A stretch of DNA of 64,000 nt from Nitrosopumilus sp. Its GTDB lineage: Archaea > Thermoproteota > Nitrososphaeria > Nitrososphaerales > Nitrosopumilaceae. Location: positions 768,001-832,000 of the forward strand of contig OZ245003.1 in NCBI GenBank assembly GCA_965223425.1, given 5' to 3'. Below the pieces are notes generated by a model. That model did no database searches, was not told where the DNA came from, and was given only the letters and a program-made list of their open reading frames with translations. The position numbers were made by a program, and so were the translations under genes. Below are positions 14,313-26,548 of this stretch, one piece after another; the first letter of the stretch is position 1, and every line of letters starts with the position of its first letter.

Positions 14313-15857
14313 ATGAGAACAAAAATAACATCACTGCTGATGATTGCAACCTTGGTTGCTATCGCACCGCCATTAAACGCAAATGCTGAATCAATGCCCG
14401 AAACACCTCAAGCAAATTTAGACTATAACCTAGTTGGAGCTGGTGCAACGTTTCCATTCCCATTAATTGATTTGTGGAGAGTTGAATACAACAAAATTTA
14501 CGACAACGTAAATCTGAACTACCAATCAATTGGAAGTGGCGGTGGAATTAAGCAACACATTGAAAGAACCGTAAATTTTGCAGCCTCAGATAAACCAATG
14601 AGTGAAGCCGAAATAGAGCTAGCTTCTGGAACACTACACATTCCTGAATCAGTTGGAGGTGTAGTTTTAGTGTACAACGTTCCTGAAGTTCCAAACAAGG
14701 GTCTTAAGCTAACTGCTGATGTCGTAGCTGGAATCTTTTTGGGAGATATTACAAAATGGAACGATCCTGCCATAGTTGCAGAAAACCCAAGATTGAACCT
14801 GCCTGACAAAGACATAGTTACTGCACACAGATCAGACGGCTCTGGAACCACTTTCATATTCACAGATTATCTATCTGTAGTCAGCCCTACGTGGGATGAA
14901 CAGATAGGTAAAGGAAAATCTATTCCATGGCCTTCTGGTCTTGCTGCTGCAGGAAATGAAGGTGTTGCCGGCATCGTAAAGTCTACTGAATATGCAATTG
15001 GATACATTGAACTTGCTTATGCATTCCAAACAGGAATGAGTTATGCATATATTCAAAACGCTGAAAAATCTGCATTCATTGAACCATCATTGGACAGCAT
15101 TTCTGCTGCATCTAGTGGTGTTGCTGACACTTTACCTGCAGCTGAAGACAGCTGGGTTGGAGTGTCACTAGTCAATGCACCAGGTTCTGATTCCTACCCA
15201 ATTGCTAGTTTCACATACCTACTTGTGTATGATGATCTAAAACCGGTAACAAAAAGCAAAGAACAAGCAAAAGCCATAATCCATCTAATTAATTGGATGA
15301 TTACTGATGGTCAGGAATTCTCACCAAGTTTGCTATATGTCCCACTTGCCGATAAGGTAACAAAACTTGGACAAGCAGGATTAAAACAAGTAACATATGG
15401 CGGTGAAGTTCTTTGGGGTGCAAAAGCATCTGCAGATTCAGGAAATATGCCAGAGATGACACAGCAAACTGTAAATGAAGAAAACGGAGGTTGCCTAATT
15501 GCAACTGCAACATATGGTTCTGAAATGGCGCCACAAGTTCAGTTGTTAAGAGAAATTCGTGATAACCAGCTAATGAATACCGCATTTGGCATGTCATTTA
15601 TGGCCGGATTCAATCAGTTGTACTATTCATTCTCGCCACACATTGCTGACATGGAAAGAGAAAGTCCAGCGTTCAAGGAAATGGTAAAGATCGGAATAAC
15701 CCCGTTGCTATCATCCTTGTCCATCATGGAATATGCCGAGTCAGACTCTGAAGTGCTAGGATATGGCATCGGTGCAATTCTGATGAATCTTGGAATGTAC
15801 TTTGCAGCACCGGCTATGTTGTTTTACAGAATAGCAAAGAGAATAAGGCATTCTTGA
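14313..15857 (+). CDS. pstS: Phosphate-binding protein PstS with CFI-box-CTERM anchor
   Basis: GAGATFP, YQSIGSGGG, HRSDGSGTT; C-terminal GGCLIATATYGSEMAPQVQLLRE. Confidence 0.95.
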   Translation: MRTKITSLLMIATLVAIAPPLNANAESMPETPQANLDYNLVGAGATFPFPLIDLWRVEYNKIYDNVNLNYQSIGSGGGIKQHIERTVNFAASDKPMSEAEIELASGTLHIPESVGGVVLVYNVPEVPNKGLKLTADVVAGIFLGDITKWNDPAIVAENPRLNLPDKDIVTAHRSDGSGTTFIFTDYLSVVSPTWDEQIGKGKSIPWPSGLAAAGNEGVAGIVKSTEYAIGYIELAYAFQTGMSYAYIQNAEKSAFIEPSLDSISAASSGVADTLPAAEDSWVGVSLVNAPGSDSYPIASFTYLLVYDDLKPVTKSKEQAKAIIHLINWMITDGQEFSPSLLYVPLADKVTKLGQAGLKQVTYGGEVLWGAKASADSGNMPEMTQQTVNEENGGCLIATATYGSEMAPQVQLLREIRDNQLMNTAFGMSFMAGFNQLYYSFSPHIADMERESPAFKEMVKIGITPLLSSLSIMEYAESDSEVLGYGIGAILMNLGMYFAAPAMLFYRIAKRIRHS

Positions 15858-15886
15858 TCTACGCCATTTTTTATTTATTTTTGAGA

Positions 15887-17134
15887 TCAACTAGTGGTTC
15901 TGATCAAATCTCGGTTCTGTGAAGTTATCGGGAGTTGACCCCTATAACTCGACTTTGACATATCGACTATTCGGACTACCAATGGTGTGCTGGGTTCCGT
16001 CATCGCCGGCTCAAAAGTGCCGGACTGCGCTTCACATATGTCATCTCTACTACCCCTAAACCTGGGGGGCAGCTTGCGTGATATGTTGTTCATGGCAGCG
16101 ACAATATCCCTGTCCATAAACAAACCGCAATTATTACACGACAGTTTACGATGTTGTTGTTGCATGTCCTCTTGGAGTCTCTTTCCGCATTGCGGACACT
16201 GCGTGCTCGTGTTTCTTGGGTCTACTGTCTCGACTGGAGGTAGCCCGACCCATTGGGCTTTGTATTCTATTTGGCGTTGCAGCTCGTAGAATTGCCACCC
16301 GTTCAATCTGCGCCTGTACTTGTTGCCTTGACTGTTTCCTTTTCGGTACAATTTTCTTATTCCTTTCAGGTTTTCCATGACGATTGCAGTCTTGTTTTTG
16401 ACTGCGTTGTCTACTATATCCTTTGAGATTCTGTGGATGTACTGCCTTGCTCTGTCAGTCAGTCTTCTCTGTCTTTCCTTGTAGAACTGATTTTTCTTCC
16501 TGCGGTCATTTCTGTGGAAGCCTGCCCTGGCGTGTATTGTGTTCTCCTTTATGGATAACAGCTTGTTTGTCTTGTAGACTGTCACCCCTTCCTCGTTCCC
16601 ACACGTCACATTTCTTAGGTTTCTGTCTATTCCGACTTTCTTGGTGCACTCTATCTCTTGTACTTTTTTTGAAACACAAAGACTGATGTTGAGGGCAGTC
16701 AGTGAAAACGAGCGCACCGTCAGGGCGGGATCAGACAGGATTTTTTGGGTGTGATCGTTGAGTAAAATGTTGATTGGGTTATGTTTCTTGTATGGGATTG
16801 TTAGTAGTGCACCGTTGTGTTTTATGCCGTAACAGTTTGTCATAAAGGGATTTTTGACTATTGGATCTCTTATTCTGACACCTCGTTTGACTGATTGTTT
16901 TCTGTTTGATAATATGCCTGCAGCTTTTGATATTGCACATATCTTGTATGTTGATAAAATGTCATAGTTACGCAATTCGTGATAACATAACATGGACAGC
17001 CTCTTCATATTGTGAGTGTCTTCTTTCAACCCTATCTTGATGCAATGATTGGCCATCTTTGTGAATGTAGCCGCCATATCCATTAGGTCAGAGTTCGGCG
17101 CATATTTCTGTGATATTGGCTTTATCGCCTTCAG
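15887..17134 (-). CDS. tnpB: TnpB RNA-guided nuclease (start uncertain: CTG 17134 or ATG 17083)
   Basis: RuvC VGIDRNL / IVMENL / DRDIVAAMN, zinc finger CPQC..CNNC. The ORF runs through the TIR and stops in the flank. Confidence 0.92.
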   Translation of the reverse strand: MKAIKPISQKYAPNSDLMDMAATFTKMANHCIKIGLKEDTHNMKRLSMLCYHELRNYDILSTYKICAISKAAGILSNRKQSVKRGVRIRDPIVKNPFMTNCYGIKHNGALLTIPYKKHNPINILLNDHTQKILSDPALTVRSFSLTALNISLCVSKKVQEIECTKKVGIDRNLRNVTCGNEEGVTVYKTNKLLSIKENTIHARAGFHRNDRRKKNQFYKERQRRLTDRARQYIHRISKDIVDNAVKNKTAIVMENLKGIRKLYRKGNSQGNKYRRRLNGWQFYELQRQIEYKAQWVGLPPVETVDPRNTSTQCPQCGKRLQEDMQQQHRKLSCNNCGLFMDRDIVAAMNNISRKLPPRFRGSRDDICEAQSGTFEPAMTEPSTPLVVRIVDMSKSSYRGQLPITSQNRDLIRTTS

Positions 17135-17251
17135 CGAATATCTTGCGGTTTGGAGGCTTATACATTTTGGGAATTGACATATAACCCCCGATAACTTCAC
17201 AGACGTTATACGAAATCTTTTCTGTATCCTGTGATGTATCGTTACTGTTGG

Positions 17252-17370
17252 GCCTGAGAGTTGAATGGTTACTGTCATGTACAAGGGCGTTTCACAGACT
17301 AACTCAAAGTGAGCGGAAAACAAAATACCACACAGATGATGGTGAATGGGAGCATTCCGCAGAATCAGGC
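17252..17370 (+). ncRNA. Candidate IS110 bridge RNA core
   Basis: Outer stem GCCTGA/TCAGGC encloses two internal loops, one with TTCACAG (target flank plus core) and one with ATGGGAG (donor end plus core). Confidence 0.72.
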
Positions 17371-17396
17371 AATTTGATCAGAAAGGAGGTGATAAT

Positions 17397-18471
17397 ATGA
17401 TCAGCATAGGAATTGACGTTCACAAAAACAGGTGCGTTGCAACAGTAAAAAAAGATACCAGAAAAAAGCTGGAACAGTCAAGCTTTGAGAACACCACACG
17501 TGGAATAACGGGTTTTATCAGACACGTCAAAAAGACATACGGCAAAGACATGCAAGCAGTGTGCGAATCAACTGCCAACTACTGGATTAGACTGCATGAC
17601 ACACTGGAGGATAACGGCATTGATACTGTTCTTGCACACCCTGCAAAGACCAAGATAATAGCACAGGCAAAACTCAAAAACGACAAGCTCGATTCAGACG
17701 TATTGGCAGACCTGCTAAGATCTGACATGGTGTACGAGTCATTTGTACCAGAAAAATACTATCGGGACCTGCGCAGTCTGGTAAGAACAAGACTGAATCG
17801 CGTACACAGTGTCTCAAAACACAAAAACATGATTTATGCAATACTTGCAAAATACGACTACACCCAACCGACAATAAAGACATTCTCACAGAAAGGAATC
17901 AGATGGCTGCATGAAATCAGTCTGACAGAAGTTGACAGGATGGCAATGGACGCATATCTTGAAAACATTGAGATGAATCAAAAACAGATTGACACATTTG
18001 AGACAAAGATTGCCGCAATTAGCAACGAGGATGAAAGGGCAAGACTAGTCATGACAATGCCTGGAATAAGCTATGTCACGGCACTGACAATAATATCCGA
18101 GATAGTTGACATTAACAGATTTGCAACAGCAGAGAAACTCGTCTCATATGCGGGACTTGCACCATCGCACAGGGACAGCGGAGAGACGCAAAAAGGAGGC
18201 GGCGGAATAACAAAACGTGGTTCTGCATGGCTGCGCAATGCAGGTGGAGGCTGCAAACACCACGATACGATTTGATCCAAGGATGGAATCATTTTATTCA
18301 AGAATCGCAAAGAGAAGAAGAAAACAAAAGGCAAGAATAGCAGCTGCAAGGCAGATGATGCTTGAGATAATCTGGCACATGCTAACAAACATGGAGGAAT
18401 ACCGCACACAGAATCACGAGTTGACGCAAAGAAAGTATAAGAAGATGCAAGACAAATCAGAAACATCCTGA
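17397..18471 (+). pseudogene. IS110 recombinase, frameshift near 18243
   Basis: IGIDVHK, AVCESTANYW, KNDKLDS, GLAPSHRDSG; strong SD AGGAGGTG; C-terminus (VEAA..RIAAARQM) in another frame. Confidence 0.9.
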
Positions 18472-18611
18472 TTCAGCAAAGCACACTGAGAATGGCCCGC
18501 AGTAGGATAAGGGACGATTTCGTATGGGAGAACCCAAATCTCTATAGAACTATATTCTTCGCATAAAATATGATGATATCCTAGATAACTCCATTTTTAC
18601 GTTCAACAAAT

Positions 18612-19589
18612 GTGGGACATGTAAAGTTCAAACAAAAAAAGCCGAAAAGACGTTCAATTTCTGATAAAATCTTCAAAGTTGGCGCAACTGTAGCAGGCGT
18701 TTACGTTTTAGTGATGATTGTATTGTTAGCCTTTCAATTACTCTCTGAATCATATCCTGTTTGGGAAGAAGAAGGCTTGGGATTCATCTCCGGTACTGAC
18801 TGGAATGCAGTGGAAGGACGTGAGTCTTTTGGTGCTTTGCCTTATATTTTGGGAACGCTAGTTACTGCGGCTCTGGCAATGGTGATAGGCGTTCCGCTAA
18901 GTCTTGGCATTGCAATGTTTATCTCAGATGCTCCTGCAAAGATTGGCGGCCCGTTAGGATTTCTAGTTGAACTTTTAGCTGCGGTTCCAAGCGTAATTTA
19001 TGGACTTTGGGGTCTTTTTGTTTTTAGAATTTATTTTAAGGATTGGATTGAGGTTCCACTTCACAACGCGTTTGGTGATTCTATTTGGTTGTTTTCTGGC
19101 ACTCCTTTTGGTTTAGACATTATCACCGCAAGTGTCATTTTAGCTATAATGATCATTCCGACAGTTTCAGCAGTATCTCGTGAAATAATGAAGGCAGTTC
19201 CTCAACAACAAAAAGAAGCTGCATACATGTTGGGTGCAACAAAGTGGGAGATGTTCAAACTCGCGGTATTTCCATATTCTAAAACCGGTTTGATTGGTGC
19301 GTCAATTCTTGGATTGGGCAGAGCTGTTGGCGAAACTATGGCCGTAACAATGTTGATTGGAAATGCTACGGGTCTTTCAGCAATTCCATCCTCCTTATTC
19401 AAACCAAGTCAAACCATGTCTAGTATTATTGCAAATGAGTTTGTTGAAGCATCTCCTGCATCGTTACATCTTCCTGCATTGATTGCTGTTGCGTTGGTCT
19501 TGCTACTCATTGCAATTGCAATCAATGTTGTAGCTCACATTTTAGTAACTAGAATGCTCAAGGTAAAGGAGGGTGCTATTAACAATTGA
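18612..19589 (+). CDS. pstC: Phosphate ABC permease PstC
   Basis: ELLAAVPSVIYGLWG, GRAVGETMAV. Confidence 0.95.
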   Translation: MGHVKFKQKKPKRRSISDKIFKVGATVAGVYVLVMIVLLAFQLLSESYPVWEEEGLGFISGTDWNAVEGRESFGALPYILGTLVTAALAMVIGVPLSLGIAMFISDAPAKIGGPLGFLVELLAAVPSVIYGLWGLFVFRIYFKDWIEVPLHNAFGDSIWLFSGTPFGLDIITASVILAIMIIPTVSAVSREIMKAVPQQQKEAAYMLGATKWEMFKLAVFPYSKTGLIGASILGLGRAVGETMAVTMLIGNATGLSAIPSSLFKPSQTMSSIIANEFVEASPASLHLPALIAVALVLLLIAIAINVVAHILVTRMLKVKEGAINN

Positions 19590-24865: not shown

Positions 24866-25068
24866 GTCTACAGGTTCTACATAGATTTACCTGATCTAAC
24901 AGCTAAGCGAAATGTAAACAGAATATTCATTTTGTTTTGTTGTTAAACACAATTTGAGTCACATTCCATTGTTCTATTCCTATTTTTTGTCCAATTTTTA
25001 GTACATTTCGCTTAGCGGTTCTGTGAAGTTATAGGCACCTGAAAATATGAATTTTCTCTGAATTGAAA

Positions 25069-25965
25069 TCATGCATGCTGATTCAATGAGGCGTTTTGTA
25101 TGATGGTTTTCCACTTGTTAGAACCATCCACTAGTATTCCTGCCATCTCTGCTGGAGTCTTCTTTTCAATACCGCCATGCTTTTTTGAGAAATTATAGAA
25201 TGTCTGGAATCCGTCAAACAACTGGGCTTCTTTAAACATTGGTCTTACATTTTCAGTACCTTTGGTATCTGCTACAAACTGGGTAATCATGAATCTGGTC
25301 TCATGGTCAAGCATGGAGTATTGTAGTTTCATATTGCCCTTAATTTTCATAAAGATTTCATCAGTACGCCAAGTTTCTGATACTCTTGGAACTATGCCTT
25401 TGACATAATCTGCTACCGTTTTAGAGTATTTTTCAATCCAGCCATAGACTGCTCTGTATGATACCTTGATTTCCTCCTGCTCAAAACAGTCTGCAATATC
25501 TCTAACTGACATTCCTGAAAAATACATCTGTAATGCTCTGGTGATCACGGTATTACTGTAACGCATTTTTTCAAATCCAAAATTTGCTGTAAATCCCCTT
25601 TTACAGTCATTGCACTTGAATTTTTGAAGACTGCCTGATTTGTTTTTCTTGATTCCTTTTTTGATAATATTACCTGAATCACAGAACTTGCACACCTTGA
25701 CTAGTGATCCCTCAATTATGCGGAATGTCTGTTCTTGCCCCTCATTGTTTCTGATTAGCTCCAAAACTGTCTTGATGTGCTTGCAGTCTGATTTTCTTTT
25801 GGTGTGATCCGGGCAATCACAAATTAATCCATTGCTTGTCTTTGAGACAATATAATGAATCTGTGGTATGCTTTGAGATCTTACGCTAAATCTTTCTGGA
25901 CTGAACTGCACTGCGCAGTTTGGTAACTCCATCATTTGTGTTGCTCTTTGGGTTCGTGTATTCAT
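25069..25965 (-). pseudogene. IS6-like transposase (SWIM + Zn ribbon + HTH + DDE) with internal deletion
   Basis: CDCPD..CKH, CKFC..CNDC, WRTDE. Jumps from MFKEAQ to LFDGFQTFYNF, losing the 2nd D and E region. End GGTTCTGTGAAGTTAT at 25017. Confidence 0.8.
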
Positions 25966-26363: not shown

Positions 26364-26548
26364 ATAAAATGACAAATCAAACTCCAGCTAAGCGAAATGT
26401 ACCTCAAATCTGACACTAGATCAGCGGTTTGAACCTGCACATGAGAAGCGATTTCCTTAATCATAGTACATTTCGCTTAGCTGTCTAAAGACCGTTTCCT
26501 TTAGTCTTTGATGCTCGTAGGATTGGTGATGATGTCATCTAATCTTGA

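Follow-up and report, generated by a model that had tools for sequence, protein, structure and literature searches.

A tnpB transposon with IS6-like ends in Nitrosopumilus, its candidate omegaRNA and a one-sided motif beside its target duplication

Anatomy of the element and its copies

What occupies the segment from 15905 to 18542 of the window, the 64,000-nucleotide stretch of Nitrosopumilus DNA analysed here? The region is best explained as a 1.29-kb non-autonomous transposon with tnpB as its sole gene and with the GG-starting inverted terminal repeats (TIRs) of an IS6-like SWIM-DDE family. Together with the target duplications (TSDs) and a nested insertion, its parts are:

15913-18534: tnpB element, from TIR to TIR, with an 8-bp TSD on either side
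15905..15912 (+): TSD copy at the tnpB 3' end, CAAATCTC, by direct reading
15913..15938 (+): TIR at the tnpB 3' end, perfect over 20 nt and extending to ~24-26 nt with one mismatch
15887..17185 (-): tnpB reading frame, ~416 residues of it inside the element
17187..17203 (-): TIR at the tnpB 5' end, inner 17 nt, with the IS110 lying between these and the remaining 4 nt
17204..18530 (+): IS110-family element nested in the TIR (Pfam DEDD_Tnp_IS110 and Transposase_20; NCBIfam IS110, 200 bits)
18531..18534 (-): TIR at the tnpB 5' end, outer 4 nt, GGTT on the minus strand, by direct reading
18535..18542 (+): TSD copy at the tnpB 5' end, CAAATCTC, by direct reading

An initial annotation had described a 20-bp TIR pair which becomes perfect once the IS110 is removed and is flanked by an exact 8-bp duplication, and direct reading and a pattern search agree with it: GGTTCTGTGAAGTTATCGGG lies at 15913-15932 on the plus strand, and its reverse complement is composed of 17187-17203 and 18531-18534, with 0 chance matches to the 20-mer expected (100 shuffles). 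The IS110 that splits the right TIR measures 1327 or 1328 bp, its boundary being ambiguous by one A. Compared with other copies it lacks 2 nt near 18242, which breaks the transposase frame; an AT is present behind 18242 in DNA contigs, and a second IS110 copy elsewhere occupies the identical TIR position. Nested insertions are common in this genome, affecting, besides the TIR with its IS110, two tnpB copies and one IS6-like element that harbor other ISs.

The only cargo, also as annotated, is a tnpB gene with RuvC and zinc motifs, the sole long frame between the TIRs and encoded on the minus strand. The usual stop codon, a TAA at 15935-15937 at which other copies end, reads CAA in the studied copy, so that the frame crosses the left TIR to 15887. 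The translation matches Pfam Cas12f1-like_TNB (2.6e-20), scores above the cut-off of NCBIfam NF040570 guided_TnpB (120.8 bits versus 100) and has distant matches to the solved ISDra2 TnpB at 7e-7. The motifs GIDRN, VMENL, CPQCG...CNNCG and DRDIVAAMN can be read in it, and the RuvC D-E-D residues and the CxxC...CxxC zinc finger are all present, the E, zinc-finger and second-D stretches aligning with solved Cas12f/TnpB chains and the first D being read by eye. Judged by its coding sequence, tnpB is under purifying selection, with dN/dS values of 0.06-0.28 and a frame of at least 395 codons retained in 38 of the 40 elements of uninterrupted length. With ~400 residues, the protein is a compact archaeal TnpB.

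The element has transposed repeatedly, through a mechanism in which 8 bp of the target become duplicated. Its own genome contains ~14 full-length copies plus fragments, a related Nitrosopumilus genome at least 30 loci, and other genera of Nitrosopumilaceae harbor diverged relatives that keep the TIR-tnpB layout at 45-60% protein identity; the layout is likewise maintained across subfamilies with dS above 1. What had been annotated for one copy recurs in others. TIRs of the GGTTCTGT type, 20-28 nt in length, bound 43/43 elements examined (a few have 1-3 substitutions in the terminal 8 nt), and the TSDs of these full-length elements are perfect over 8 bp in 26 and match at 7/8 positions in 3, a matching TSD being absent in 14. 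In one TSD-less pair the TSDs are reciprocally swapped, which indicates an inversion. Excluded from the 43 is an own-genome copy with a truncated 5' TIR (C1:654740), and dropped from the set of other genera is a locus with an AT-rich pair instead of a GG-type TIR (L127); two loci of an unpublished genome (L133 and L153, genome G078) are uncounted, though their pattern is alike. Empty alleles exist for three insertions, whose orthologous sites in the other genome are unoccupied and continuous; for the studied locus, two DNA runs contained no empty-site joint.

The 3' RNA and the T-T-R motif

Further features lie on the minus strand, at and beside the two ends of the element:

15913..16110 (-): candidate omegaRNA scaffold, from alignment, RNAalifold, pair counts and a depressed synonymous rate
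15890..15912 (-): predicted omegaRNA guide segment, from the geometry and the T-T-R asymmetry
18543..18545 (-): candidate TAM of the studied copy, ATA in tnpB orientation, with T at -2 and R at -1

By the evidence of the aligned copies, the last ~200 nt of the element encode a structured RNA that is conserved and shows compensatory changes at its base pairs (alignment, RNAalifold). The 50 predicted pairs are 98.9% paired, compared with 26-46% in slid controls, and 9 pairs carry compensatory changes; double-change cells number 44 versus 1-6 in slid controls, a value reached by 0/500 shuffles. A 20-nt core, ATAGTCGATATGTCAAAGTC, is invariant in the 22-sequence alignment. Where the scaffold overlaps the final ~60 codons of tnpB, most of the more diverged pairs have a synonymous rate 3-8 times lower than in the gene body. 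Folded as a single sequence, the 3' region does no better than shuffles (z = -0.33); it is covariation, not energy, that argues for the RNA. An Rfam scan of 15700-18700 returned no family at the tnpB 3' region (15913-16172) and sub-threshold chance matches elsewhere in that interval, to the CPEB3 ribozyme and UCA1; upstream of the IS6-like transposase discussed below, Rfam matches to C/D snoRNAs are all sub-threshold. Contigs of two RNA libraries from one sponge metatranscriptome study cover the RNA region and parts of tnpB, possibly through DNA carry-over, and lend weak support; they are contig-level data, uninformative on RNA ends, strand and level, and their missing cover of the IS110 and the flanks is not evidence.

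We infer that this RNA is the omegaRNA of the element, with a scaffold that ends with the TIR and a guide that is read from the adjoining DNA, and that would therefore begin with the 8-nt TSD. Read outward from the element, the predicted guide comprises the TSD copy GAGATTTG (minus strand), followed by the flank ATCAGAACC... The TIR at 15913..15938 doubles as the final portion of the candidate scaffold. In the IS1341 group and ISDra2, whose TnpB belongs to the same nuclease family (NCBIfam guided_TnpB) and which share the occurrence of non-autonomous copies, the omegaRNA likewise shares sequence with the 3' end of tnpB, and its guide comes from the flank, as predicted here.

Beyond the opposite end, the three bases directly upstream of the 5' TSD, in tnpB orientation, are T-T-R, with T at -3 in 31/43 elements, T at -2 in 41/43 and R at -1 in 42/43. 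The combination of T at -2 and R at -1 is found in 41/43 elements, with or without a matching TSD (binomial p 2e-29), and in 33/33 TSD-verified elements that bear the candidate omegaRNA, among them 4 short derivatives without tnpB; the ATA of the studied copy is a minority form that agrees with T-T-R at the last two positions. The mirrored motif is seen on the opposite side of 9/43 elements, against 7.4 expected, and of 5/33 in the TSD-verified omegaRNA-bearing set. Among TSD-verified elements from other genera (published genomes), 7/8 have the motif, and one distant homologue (36% identity) has TAT in place of T-R. A promoter explanation was rejected: the motif keeps a fixed register to the TSD, AT enrichment at positions -12 to -4 is no more than weak, and the tnpB-less derivatives share the motif.

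In the unoccupied site, the sequence that would serve as the guide is itself preceded, for nearly every copy, by T-T-R, and TTR is therefore the likely TAM; a guide starting with the TSD fits the asymmetry, which would be an indirect sign of TAM- and guide-dependent cleavage. The geometry predicted at the outset, in which the omegaRNA ends in the TIR, the guide starts with the TSD and the TAM lies on the opposite flank, matches this one-sidedness.

An IS6-like transposase as candidate partner

Which enzyme could mobilize the element? Y1 TnpA (PF01797) has 0 matches in the own genome, which is 99.99% complete, while the control was positive in 6/14 genomes. A different lead is found within the window, where, as the initial annotation had noticed and a pattern search reproduced, the first 16 nt of the TIR recur at 25017-25032, ~35 bp past the stop codon of a minus-strand transposase ORF:

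25017..25965 (-): decayed IS6-like element, with a TIR-like end at 25017-25040 and a SWIM-DDE transposase ORF at 25069-25965

Over its first ~30 nt, this end has 91-97% identity with those of tnpB subfamily copies in the own genome (C1:1781136 and 2433495). Because of an internal deletion, with ~67 residues of the DDE core missing, the ORF matches DDE_Tnp_IS240 weakly, at 20 bits, and a second TIR of this element was sought and not found. The same search beside most IS6-like transposase genes was negative, a single TIR being kept there, which leaves three two-TIR copies: L055:893-2862, L157:802-2656 and C1:256390-260474 of the own genome. These IS6-like SWIM-DDE elements have 8-bp TSDs and the same terminal sequence as the tnpB elements, the common termini extending over 18 nt in genome G001 and ~30 nt in the own genome. 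Their transposases match Pfam DDE_Tnp_IS240 (PF13610) at 1e-10 to 7e-14, with 52.7, 44.8 and 42.1 bits versus a cut-off of 27. The NCBIfam IS6 model NF033587 is the best match and its full profile is covered, but at 102.8 and 111.2 bits versus a cut-off of 125; IS1 and IS481 follow as next-best matches.

The ends read GGTTCTG..., with GG at positions 1-2 and G at position 7, and the TSDs measure 8 bp. The DDE_Tnp_IS240 domain, GG-starting TIRs with G7 and 8-bp TSDs are shared with IS6/IS26 as described by Harmer and Hall (2019, PMC6807381), whereas the transposase studied here adds an N-terminal SWIM-type CxC...CxH motif and a zinc ribbon and, being under the NCBIfam IS6 cut-off, is IS6-like only. 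The family membership of archaeal elements filed with IS6 is already doubted in PMC6807381.

The earlier proposal of a non-autonomous element served by an IS6-like enzyme has gained support, in that SWIM-DDE elements with matching ends exist, albeit below the NCBIfam IS6 cut-off, and we infer that such a transposase moves the tnpB element in trans. A point against this is that, in the own genome, the TIRs of intact-looking transposases agree with the tnpB TIR over its first 8-13 nt only. The transposase occurs in 12/19 tnpB-positive and 62/182 tnpB-negative genomes, many of these genomes being fragmented; as this enrichment is moderate and the genomes are interrelated rather than independent, we place little weight on the co-occurrence. 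Bacterial members of the IS26 type move replicatively, via cointegrates, leaving no empty donor site. If movement is replicative here, a benefit from TnpB must come from empty alleles in other chromosome copies or cells.

A possible role for TnpB in retention of the element

TnpB on TIR-bounded DDE transposons has been known since the work of Altae-Tran et al. (2023, PNAS, PMC10691335), which describes the branches DDE-1 to DDE-6, solo TnpBs included; the sharing of ends between solo TnpBs and transposase-bearing copies implies mobilization in trans there. Likewise, the elements studied here have inverted terminal repeats, a TnpB 3' end within 250 bp of the element end, and ends common to solo-tnpB and transposase-bearing copies. 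The DDE partners named are IS630 for DDE-6 (PMC10691335) and ISL2, IS630 and IS1031 in a 2026 review (PMC13565253); section 9 of the former and section 20 of the latter name neither an IS6-like/SWIM-DDE partner nor Nitrosopumilaceae, and these passages do not describe a variable 8-bp TSD as guide start together with a one-sided TTR. According to the review, IS200/IS605 elements lack TIRs and TSDs, end in hairpins, use a Y1 TnpA and integrate 3' of a fixed 4-5-nt target, which equals the TAM (PMC13565253), whereas the elements studied here have TIRs and 8-bp TSDs, no Y1 TnpA, and a candidate TAM separated from the element by the TSD. With Fanzor1 in eukaryotic TIR/TSD elements they have in common a TnpB-family nuclease on a TSD-making, cut-and-join DDE transposon. 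However, the 5' TSD of Fanzor elements is fixed (e.g. TA, TTAA) and part of the TAM, with the 3' TSD in the scaffold (PMC13565253), while the TSD studied here is variable, would form the first 8 nt of the guide, and leaves the TAM outside.

How could TnpB serve such an element? An empty allele matching the guide would be cut by TnpB, and the occupied allele would be spared, its junction offering ACC in the TAM position or merely 8 nt of guide match. Insertions would then be kept or spread, via TnpB-driven homing or retention, only if a TAM lay in the right place and orientation, a filter suggested by the near-universal, one-sided TTR. Such a filter would explain the oriented TTR in essentially all resident copies, including the short omegaRNA-only derivatives. 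We consider the explanation as a whole, a tnpB transposon with IS6-like ends moved in trans, an omegaRNA with a TSD-first guide, a TTR TAM and TnpB-driven retention, to be probable. That TnpB and omegaRNA act as a homing or retention module of an IS6-like transposon, with the TSD as guide seed and the TTR TAM filtering the surviving insertions, is a proposition whose chances we judge evenly balanced.

The one-sided TTR might instead be a target preference of the transposition machinery, for example of an asymmetric transpososome that reads the subterminal sequences of tnpB/omegaRNA elements, with TnpB uninvolved. The motif does directly border the staggered cut, at the place where a transposase touches its target, and the TIRs are identical for ~24 nt only, the subterminal sequences being unlike at the two ends. 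The evidence to set against this comes from nine elements with the same ends and no omegaRNA, of mixed TIR subfamilies, three of them complete and transposase-bearing. Around these, the motif is found on 4/18 sides, at the chance level of ~17% expected from composition: 5/9 lack it on both sides, L055 and L157 included, and 4/9, C1:256390 among them, have T-R on one side only; these four speak for a preference of the machinery. As this control set is small and mixed, a weak preference of the transposase is possible. Moreover, the motif survives across at least 6 TIR subfamilies that differ in inner TIR and subterminal sequence, RNA and TnpB being common to all, and we regard an origin in the transposition machinery as unlikely. 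A TAM-bound TnpB could also recruit or position the DDE transpososome, so that the motif would be imposed at insertion and not by later selection. The 33/33 frequency and exact register would be hard for weak selection to achieve, and the motif of the tnpB-less short derivatives is expected if TnpB acts in trans. Yet there is no precedent in section 9 of PMC10691335 or section 20 of PMC13565253, a new site can offer no match to the guide of a resident copy, the TAM adjoins the element end opposite the RNA-encoding one, and the data are equally compatible with post-insertion selection; site choice by TnpB seems to us quite improbable.

An ordinary tnpB element of the IS605/IS1341 type could have landed in a pre-existing MITE and been carried passively since, a course of events for which the frequent nested insertions in the own genome might speak. 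However, the stop-free tnpB frame opens within ~60 nt of one element end, reaches the inner edge of the TIR at the other and leaves no space for IS605-type hairpin ends, whose absence inside the TIRs agrees with the initial annotation. With the layout conserved at dS above 1 and in other genera (45-60% protein identity) and no Y1 TnpA found in the own genome, passive carriage is scarcely credible. Finally, TnpB may have ceased to be a nuclease and persist either as an inert passenger or, once domesticated, as an RNA-guided regulator. PMC10691335 describes TnpBs that are catalytically dead or exapted, and nothing specific favors such a fate here. Against it stand the D, E, D and CxxC...CxxC zinc-finger motifs of a multi-copy, mobile gene with dN/dS of 0.06-0.28, and loss of nuclease function is very improbable.

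Cas12 descends from TnpB, whose natural role is understood chiefly for IS605/IS607 elements, which excise without a scar. For DDE transposons, the 2026 review asks why OMEGA systems are rare on them and whether they help them at all (PMC13565253). Newly seen here is a strict, one-sided T-T-R next to a variable TSD, which is at chance around same-end elements without the omegaRNA. With dozens of independent insertions in several genera, the tnpB family is a data set provided by nature; the presumed TAM shows in it as a strict footprint on one side, beside the variable TSD, which makes the question of an OMEGA benefit testable. The family further supplies a compact TnpB whose candidate TAM is short and permissive and whose RNA scaffold is defined, and the short omegaRNA-only derivatives suggest that the RNA module is usable in trans. 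If TnpB-driven retention holds true, a nuclease would shape the insertion landscape of a transposon class for which its benefit was questioned.

The tnpB element and its copies

Read directly in the sequence, the window element has the architecture proposed in the initial annotation, a 20-bp terminal inverted repeat (TIR), an interrupted opposite copy and an 8-bp target-site duplication (TSD):

15905-15912 and 18535-18542: TSD CAAATCTC, flanking the whole element
15913-15932: TIR GGTTCTGTGAAGTTATCGGG
17187-17203 and 18531-18534: reverse complement of the TIR, split by a 1327/1328-bp insertion
17204-18530: the insertion, an IS110-family element (Pfam; NCBIfam, 200 bits)

No chance matches to the 20-mer are expected (100 shuffles). 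As had been claimed, tnpB, read on the minus strand, is the sole long frame that the repeats enclose; it matches Cas12f1-like_TNB (Pfam, 2.6e-20) and NCBIfam guided_TnpB (120.8 bits; cut-off 100). Its translation contains the RuvC and Zn motifs GIDRN, VMENL, CPQCG...CNNCG and DRD, the last three of which can be aligned with solved chains of Cas12f/TnpB. The heptamer that opens the TIR, GGTTCTG, lies also within the candidate guide flank (15896-15902), 10 bp from the element end, and may be there by chance or as the trace of an older end.

The genome containing the window (2.64 Mb, two contigs, 41% G+C), which its relatives place in the family Nitrosopumilaceae, holds the following tnpB copies:

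eight uninterrupted, 1291 bp, 96-97% identity
three split by further insertions, one of them the window copy
one truncated at one end
two of a diverged subfamily, 82-88% identity
several fragments

The related Nitrosopumilus genome G001 has at least 30 tnpB loci (76-94% protein identity). TIRs are kept at these loci, each starting with GGTTCTGT or, in a few copies, a close variant with 1-3 substitutions, and split beyond this shared start into at least six subfamilies. TSDs are likewise kept in other copies: among the 43 elements of both genomes, 26 have perfect 8-bp duplications, three match at 7/8 positions and 14 show no match. For three G001 insertions, empty orthologous sites, continuous and single-copy, are found in the window's genome, and in other genera of the family tnpB homologues at 45-60% identity also lie between GG..CTGT repeats with 8-bp TSDs. 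One pair among the copies with no TSD match, oppositely oriented on contig C1 of the window's genome (C1:1325308-1326598 and C1:1451399-1452689), has reciprocally exchanged TSDs (TAGAAACT, TTATGTTA), and this exact swap indicates a chromosomal inversion of about 126 kb by recombination between them. The element is almost certainly mobile by a DDE-type TIR/TSD mechanism.

Two larger segments, C1:1201385-1208237 (6.9 kb) and C1:1892824-1901882 (9.1 kb), have the same kind of TIRs and perfect 8-bp TSDs; they contain other insertion sequences, a methylase/HNH gene, a large Ig-domain protein and a TraG/VirD4-like ATPase, and may be composite or cargo-carrying transposons. The nested IS110 has a second full copy (99.2%; C1:2061324-2062650) at the same position in another GGTTCTGTCAAGTTATCGGG repeat, and a 14-nt remnant of its left end (C1:654726-654739) abuts a third tnpB copy; TIRs of this transposon family appear to be its target. 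The 5' non-coding region of the IS110 holds TTCACAGA (17291-17298), identical to the left flank plus core of the target, as would be expected of a bridge/seek-RNA guide. In the window copy, a 2-nt deletion near 18242, where DNA contigs of other copies read 'AT', breaks the transposase frame.

The IS6-like transposases

Several IS6-like transposases are encoded in the window's genome. They match DDE_Tnp_IS240 above the Pfam cut-off; their best match is the NCBIfam IS6 model, covered from end to end, yet at 103-111 bits against a cut-off of 125, and at the N-terminus they have a zinc ribbon and a SWIM-type motif, CxC...CxH. Elements that are complete, with a TIR at either end and 8-bp TSDs, are:

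L055:893-2862 (a locus in G001): 1970 bp, perfect 28-bp TIR, TSD CTATTGTG
L157:802-2656 (a locus in another genus): 1855 bp, TIR 19/20, TSD 8/8
C1:256390-260474: 4085 bp, TIR 16/16, TSD 7/8, another insertion sequence nested

The first 18 nt of the L055 TIR are common to one tnpB subfamily in G001. The recurrence of the first 16 nt of the window TIR at 25017 holds, adjoining the 3' end of a 298-residue SWIM/DDE ORF in which about 67 residues of the DDE core are missing relative to intact relatives; over about 30 nt, this decayed element matches (91-97%) the ends of the tnpB subfamily whose copies lie at 1781136 and 2433495 in the same genome. Y1 TnpA (PF01797) was not detectable in this genome, which is 99.99% complete. 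The shared ends, the 8-bp TSDs and the lack of Y1 TnpA support the initial interpretation as an IS6-like tnpB transposon mobilised in trans, and the IS6-like transposase is probably its partner. The transposase family is widespread, occurring in 74 of 201 sampled Nitrosopumilaceae genomes, namely in 12/19 with the tnpB clade versus 62/182 without it, a modest enrichment among genomes that are not independent.

Most IS6-like transposase genes have a single TIR, downstream of the stop codon; a matching upstream repeat was looked for at these genes and not found, homology between copies stopping near a C/D-box-sRNA-like motif. This motif recurs about 50 nt upstream of the start codon at several unrelated loci in two genomes. 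The genes and the motif lie at:

C1:917303-918405; window 25017-25965; L056-L060, L156, L158-L163, L166 (further loci): one-TIR transposase genes
L055:1245-1335; C1:~917190-917255, ~1686850 (minus), ~648293 (minus): C/D-box-like motif

It is ordered as terminal stem, RUGAUGA, CUGA, UGAUGA, CUGA and stem, and its C/D snoRNA matches in Rfam are sub-threshold only (E 0.19-0.55); if real, a C/D-box RNA borne on a transposon would be unusual. Many genomes of the family have one transposase copy of about 40% identity with an open frame, which may represent one-ended or domesticated forms. In the window, two copies (24900-25016 and 26387-26482) of an approximately 100-bp element with inverted ends (CAGCTAAGCGAAATGTA...TACATTTCGCTTAGC), a many-copy repeat in this genome, bracket the decayed transposase region.

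The nuclease gene, its RNA and an oriented motif

A stop-free frame of at least 395 codons is kept in 38 of 40 uninterrupted-length tnpB elements, and comparison of subfamilies yields dN/dS values of 0.06-0.28 for the gene body, at dS as high as 1.4. Across the 50 codons past the RuvC-III motif dS drops to 0.1-0.35, which indicates a second constraint there, on nucleotides. Aligned over their final 260 nt, 22 elements give a consensus structure of 50 pairs, nine with compensatory changes; 98.9% of cells are paired, versus 26-46% after the partners are shifted by 1-3 columns, and 44 cells carry double changes versus 1-6 in the slid controls, pairing values reached by none of 500 shuffles. All 22 sequences share an invariant 20-nt core, ATAGTCGATATGTCAAAGTC, whose spacing to the TIR differs by 0-70 nt among subfamilies. 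Nuclease gene and 3' RNA are thus maintained. Rfam has no model for this candidate omegaRNA (TnpB guide RNA). Contigs from two sponge metatranscriptome runs of one study cover the RNA region and parts of tnpB at 90-100% likeness. They are a weak hint, giving neither RNA ends nor strand, and DNA may be present in the libraries.

Some TIR/TSD elements are only 344-497 bp long; in these the omegaRNA region is retained and tnpB is mostly lost, save the last ~100 codons overlapping the RNA:

C1:1199933-1200276
G001:143852-144348, 803351-803738 and 870887-871264

In all four, TTG or TTA precedes the 5' TSD. They resemble guide-RNA-only MITEs and could use TnpB in trans.

When all 43 elements are placed in tnpB orientation, the triplet immediately before the 5' TSD reads:

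position -3: T in 31/43
position -2: T in 41/43
position -1: G or A in 42/43

T followed by a purine (T-R; binomial p = 2e-29, given local frequencies of 34% for T and 51% for purines) is oriented, the mirror image on the 3' side occurring in 9/43 versus 7.4 expected. Across these elements the TSD and the 3' flank have no notable conservation, and farther upstream there is weak A/T enrichment at positions -12 and -7 only. A second count, seeded by the RNA core instead of the gene and covering TSD-verified elements of the window's genome plus the initial 1.2 Mb of G001, the four short derivatives included, gave T-R in 33/33 (TTG 14, TTA 9, ATA 6, ATG 3, CTA 1) and the mirror motif in 5/33. In published genomes of other genera, two loci of the unpublished genome G078 being left out, T-R is present in 7/8 TSD-verified elements and missing only from the remotest homologue (36% identity).

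Origin and possible use of the motif

What could produce such a motif? A target preference of the transposase is an unlikely source: around nine TIR/TSD elements with similar ends and no RNA (three with transposase, the rest MITE-like or composite), a small control set, T-R occurs on 4/18 sides, and five of the nine lack it on both sides. We infer that the best explanation of a motif so strict, oriented and tied to the RNA is that TnpB activity determines which insertions are kept or spread; TnpB may alternatively direct insertion itself, the motif then reflecting TAM-guided targeting.

For retention, the RNA would be an omegaRNA whose scaffold stops where the transposon does, as is the case in TnpB systems already known, so that transcription into the 3' TSD copy and on into the flank would supply the guide (GAGATTTGATCAGAACC... 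in the window, minus strand). At an unoccupied site, the guide-matching sequence would be preceded by the 5' flank, placing TTR at the position of the target-adjacent motif (TAM). At an occupied site it would be preceded by ...ACAGAACC, and the 5' junction would present TTR followed by only 8 matching nucleotides. With no TTR before a full match there, TnpB would cut the empty allele and leave the element intact. Transposition of bacterial IS26-type members is replicative and leaves no empty donor; empty alleles would then have to be met on sister chromosomes, in other cells or after excision. Taken as a whole, with TIR/TSD element, IS6-like partner and omegaRNA/TAM role, we consider this mechanism rather likely.

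Classical tnpB elements (IS605, IS607, IS1341) are described in the relevant sections of PMC13565253 and PMC3119063 as without TIRs and TSDs, whereas the present element has both. TnpB on DDE transposons with inverted repeats is already published: Altae-Tran et al. (2023; PMC10691335) report, in the part consulted, six branches of TnpB associated with DDE transposases, each having inverted terminal repeats, and solo TnpBs with the same ends, interpreted as mobilised in trans. The partners named in these excerpts are IS630 (PMC10691335) and ISL2, IS630 and IS1031 (2026 review, PMC13565253). A full-text literature search found no paper linking TnpB to IS6-like elements or Nitrosopumilaceae, and no description of a variable TSD as guide start with the TAM beyond it; the sections consulted of a thaumarchaeal mobile-element survey (PMC6563490) do not mention a TnpB/IS6-like association. 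In Fanzor, according to the passage concerned in PMC13565253, a fixed TSD is part of the TAM; the TSD here is variable, and the geometry different. The oriented three-base motif beside the TSD is a new observation. The oriented TTR footprint, together with its internal control, makes the use of TnpB to DDE transposons directly testable.
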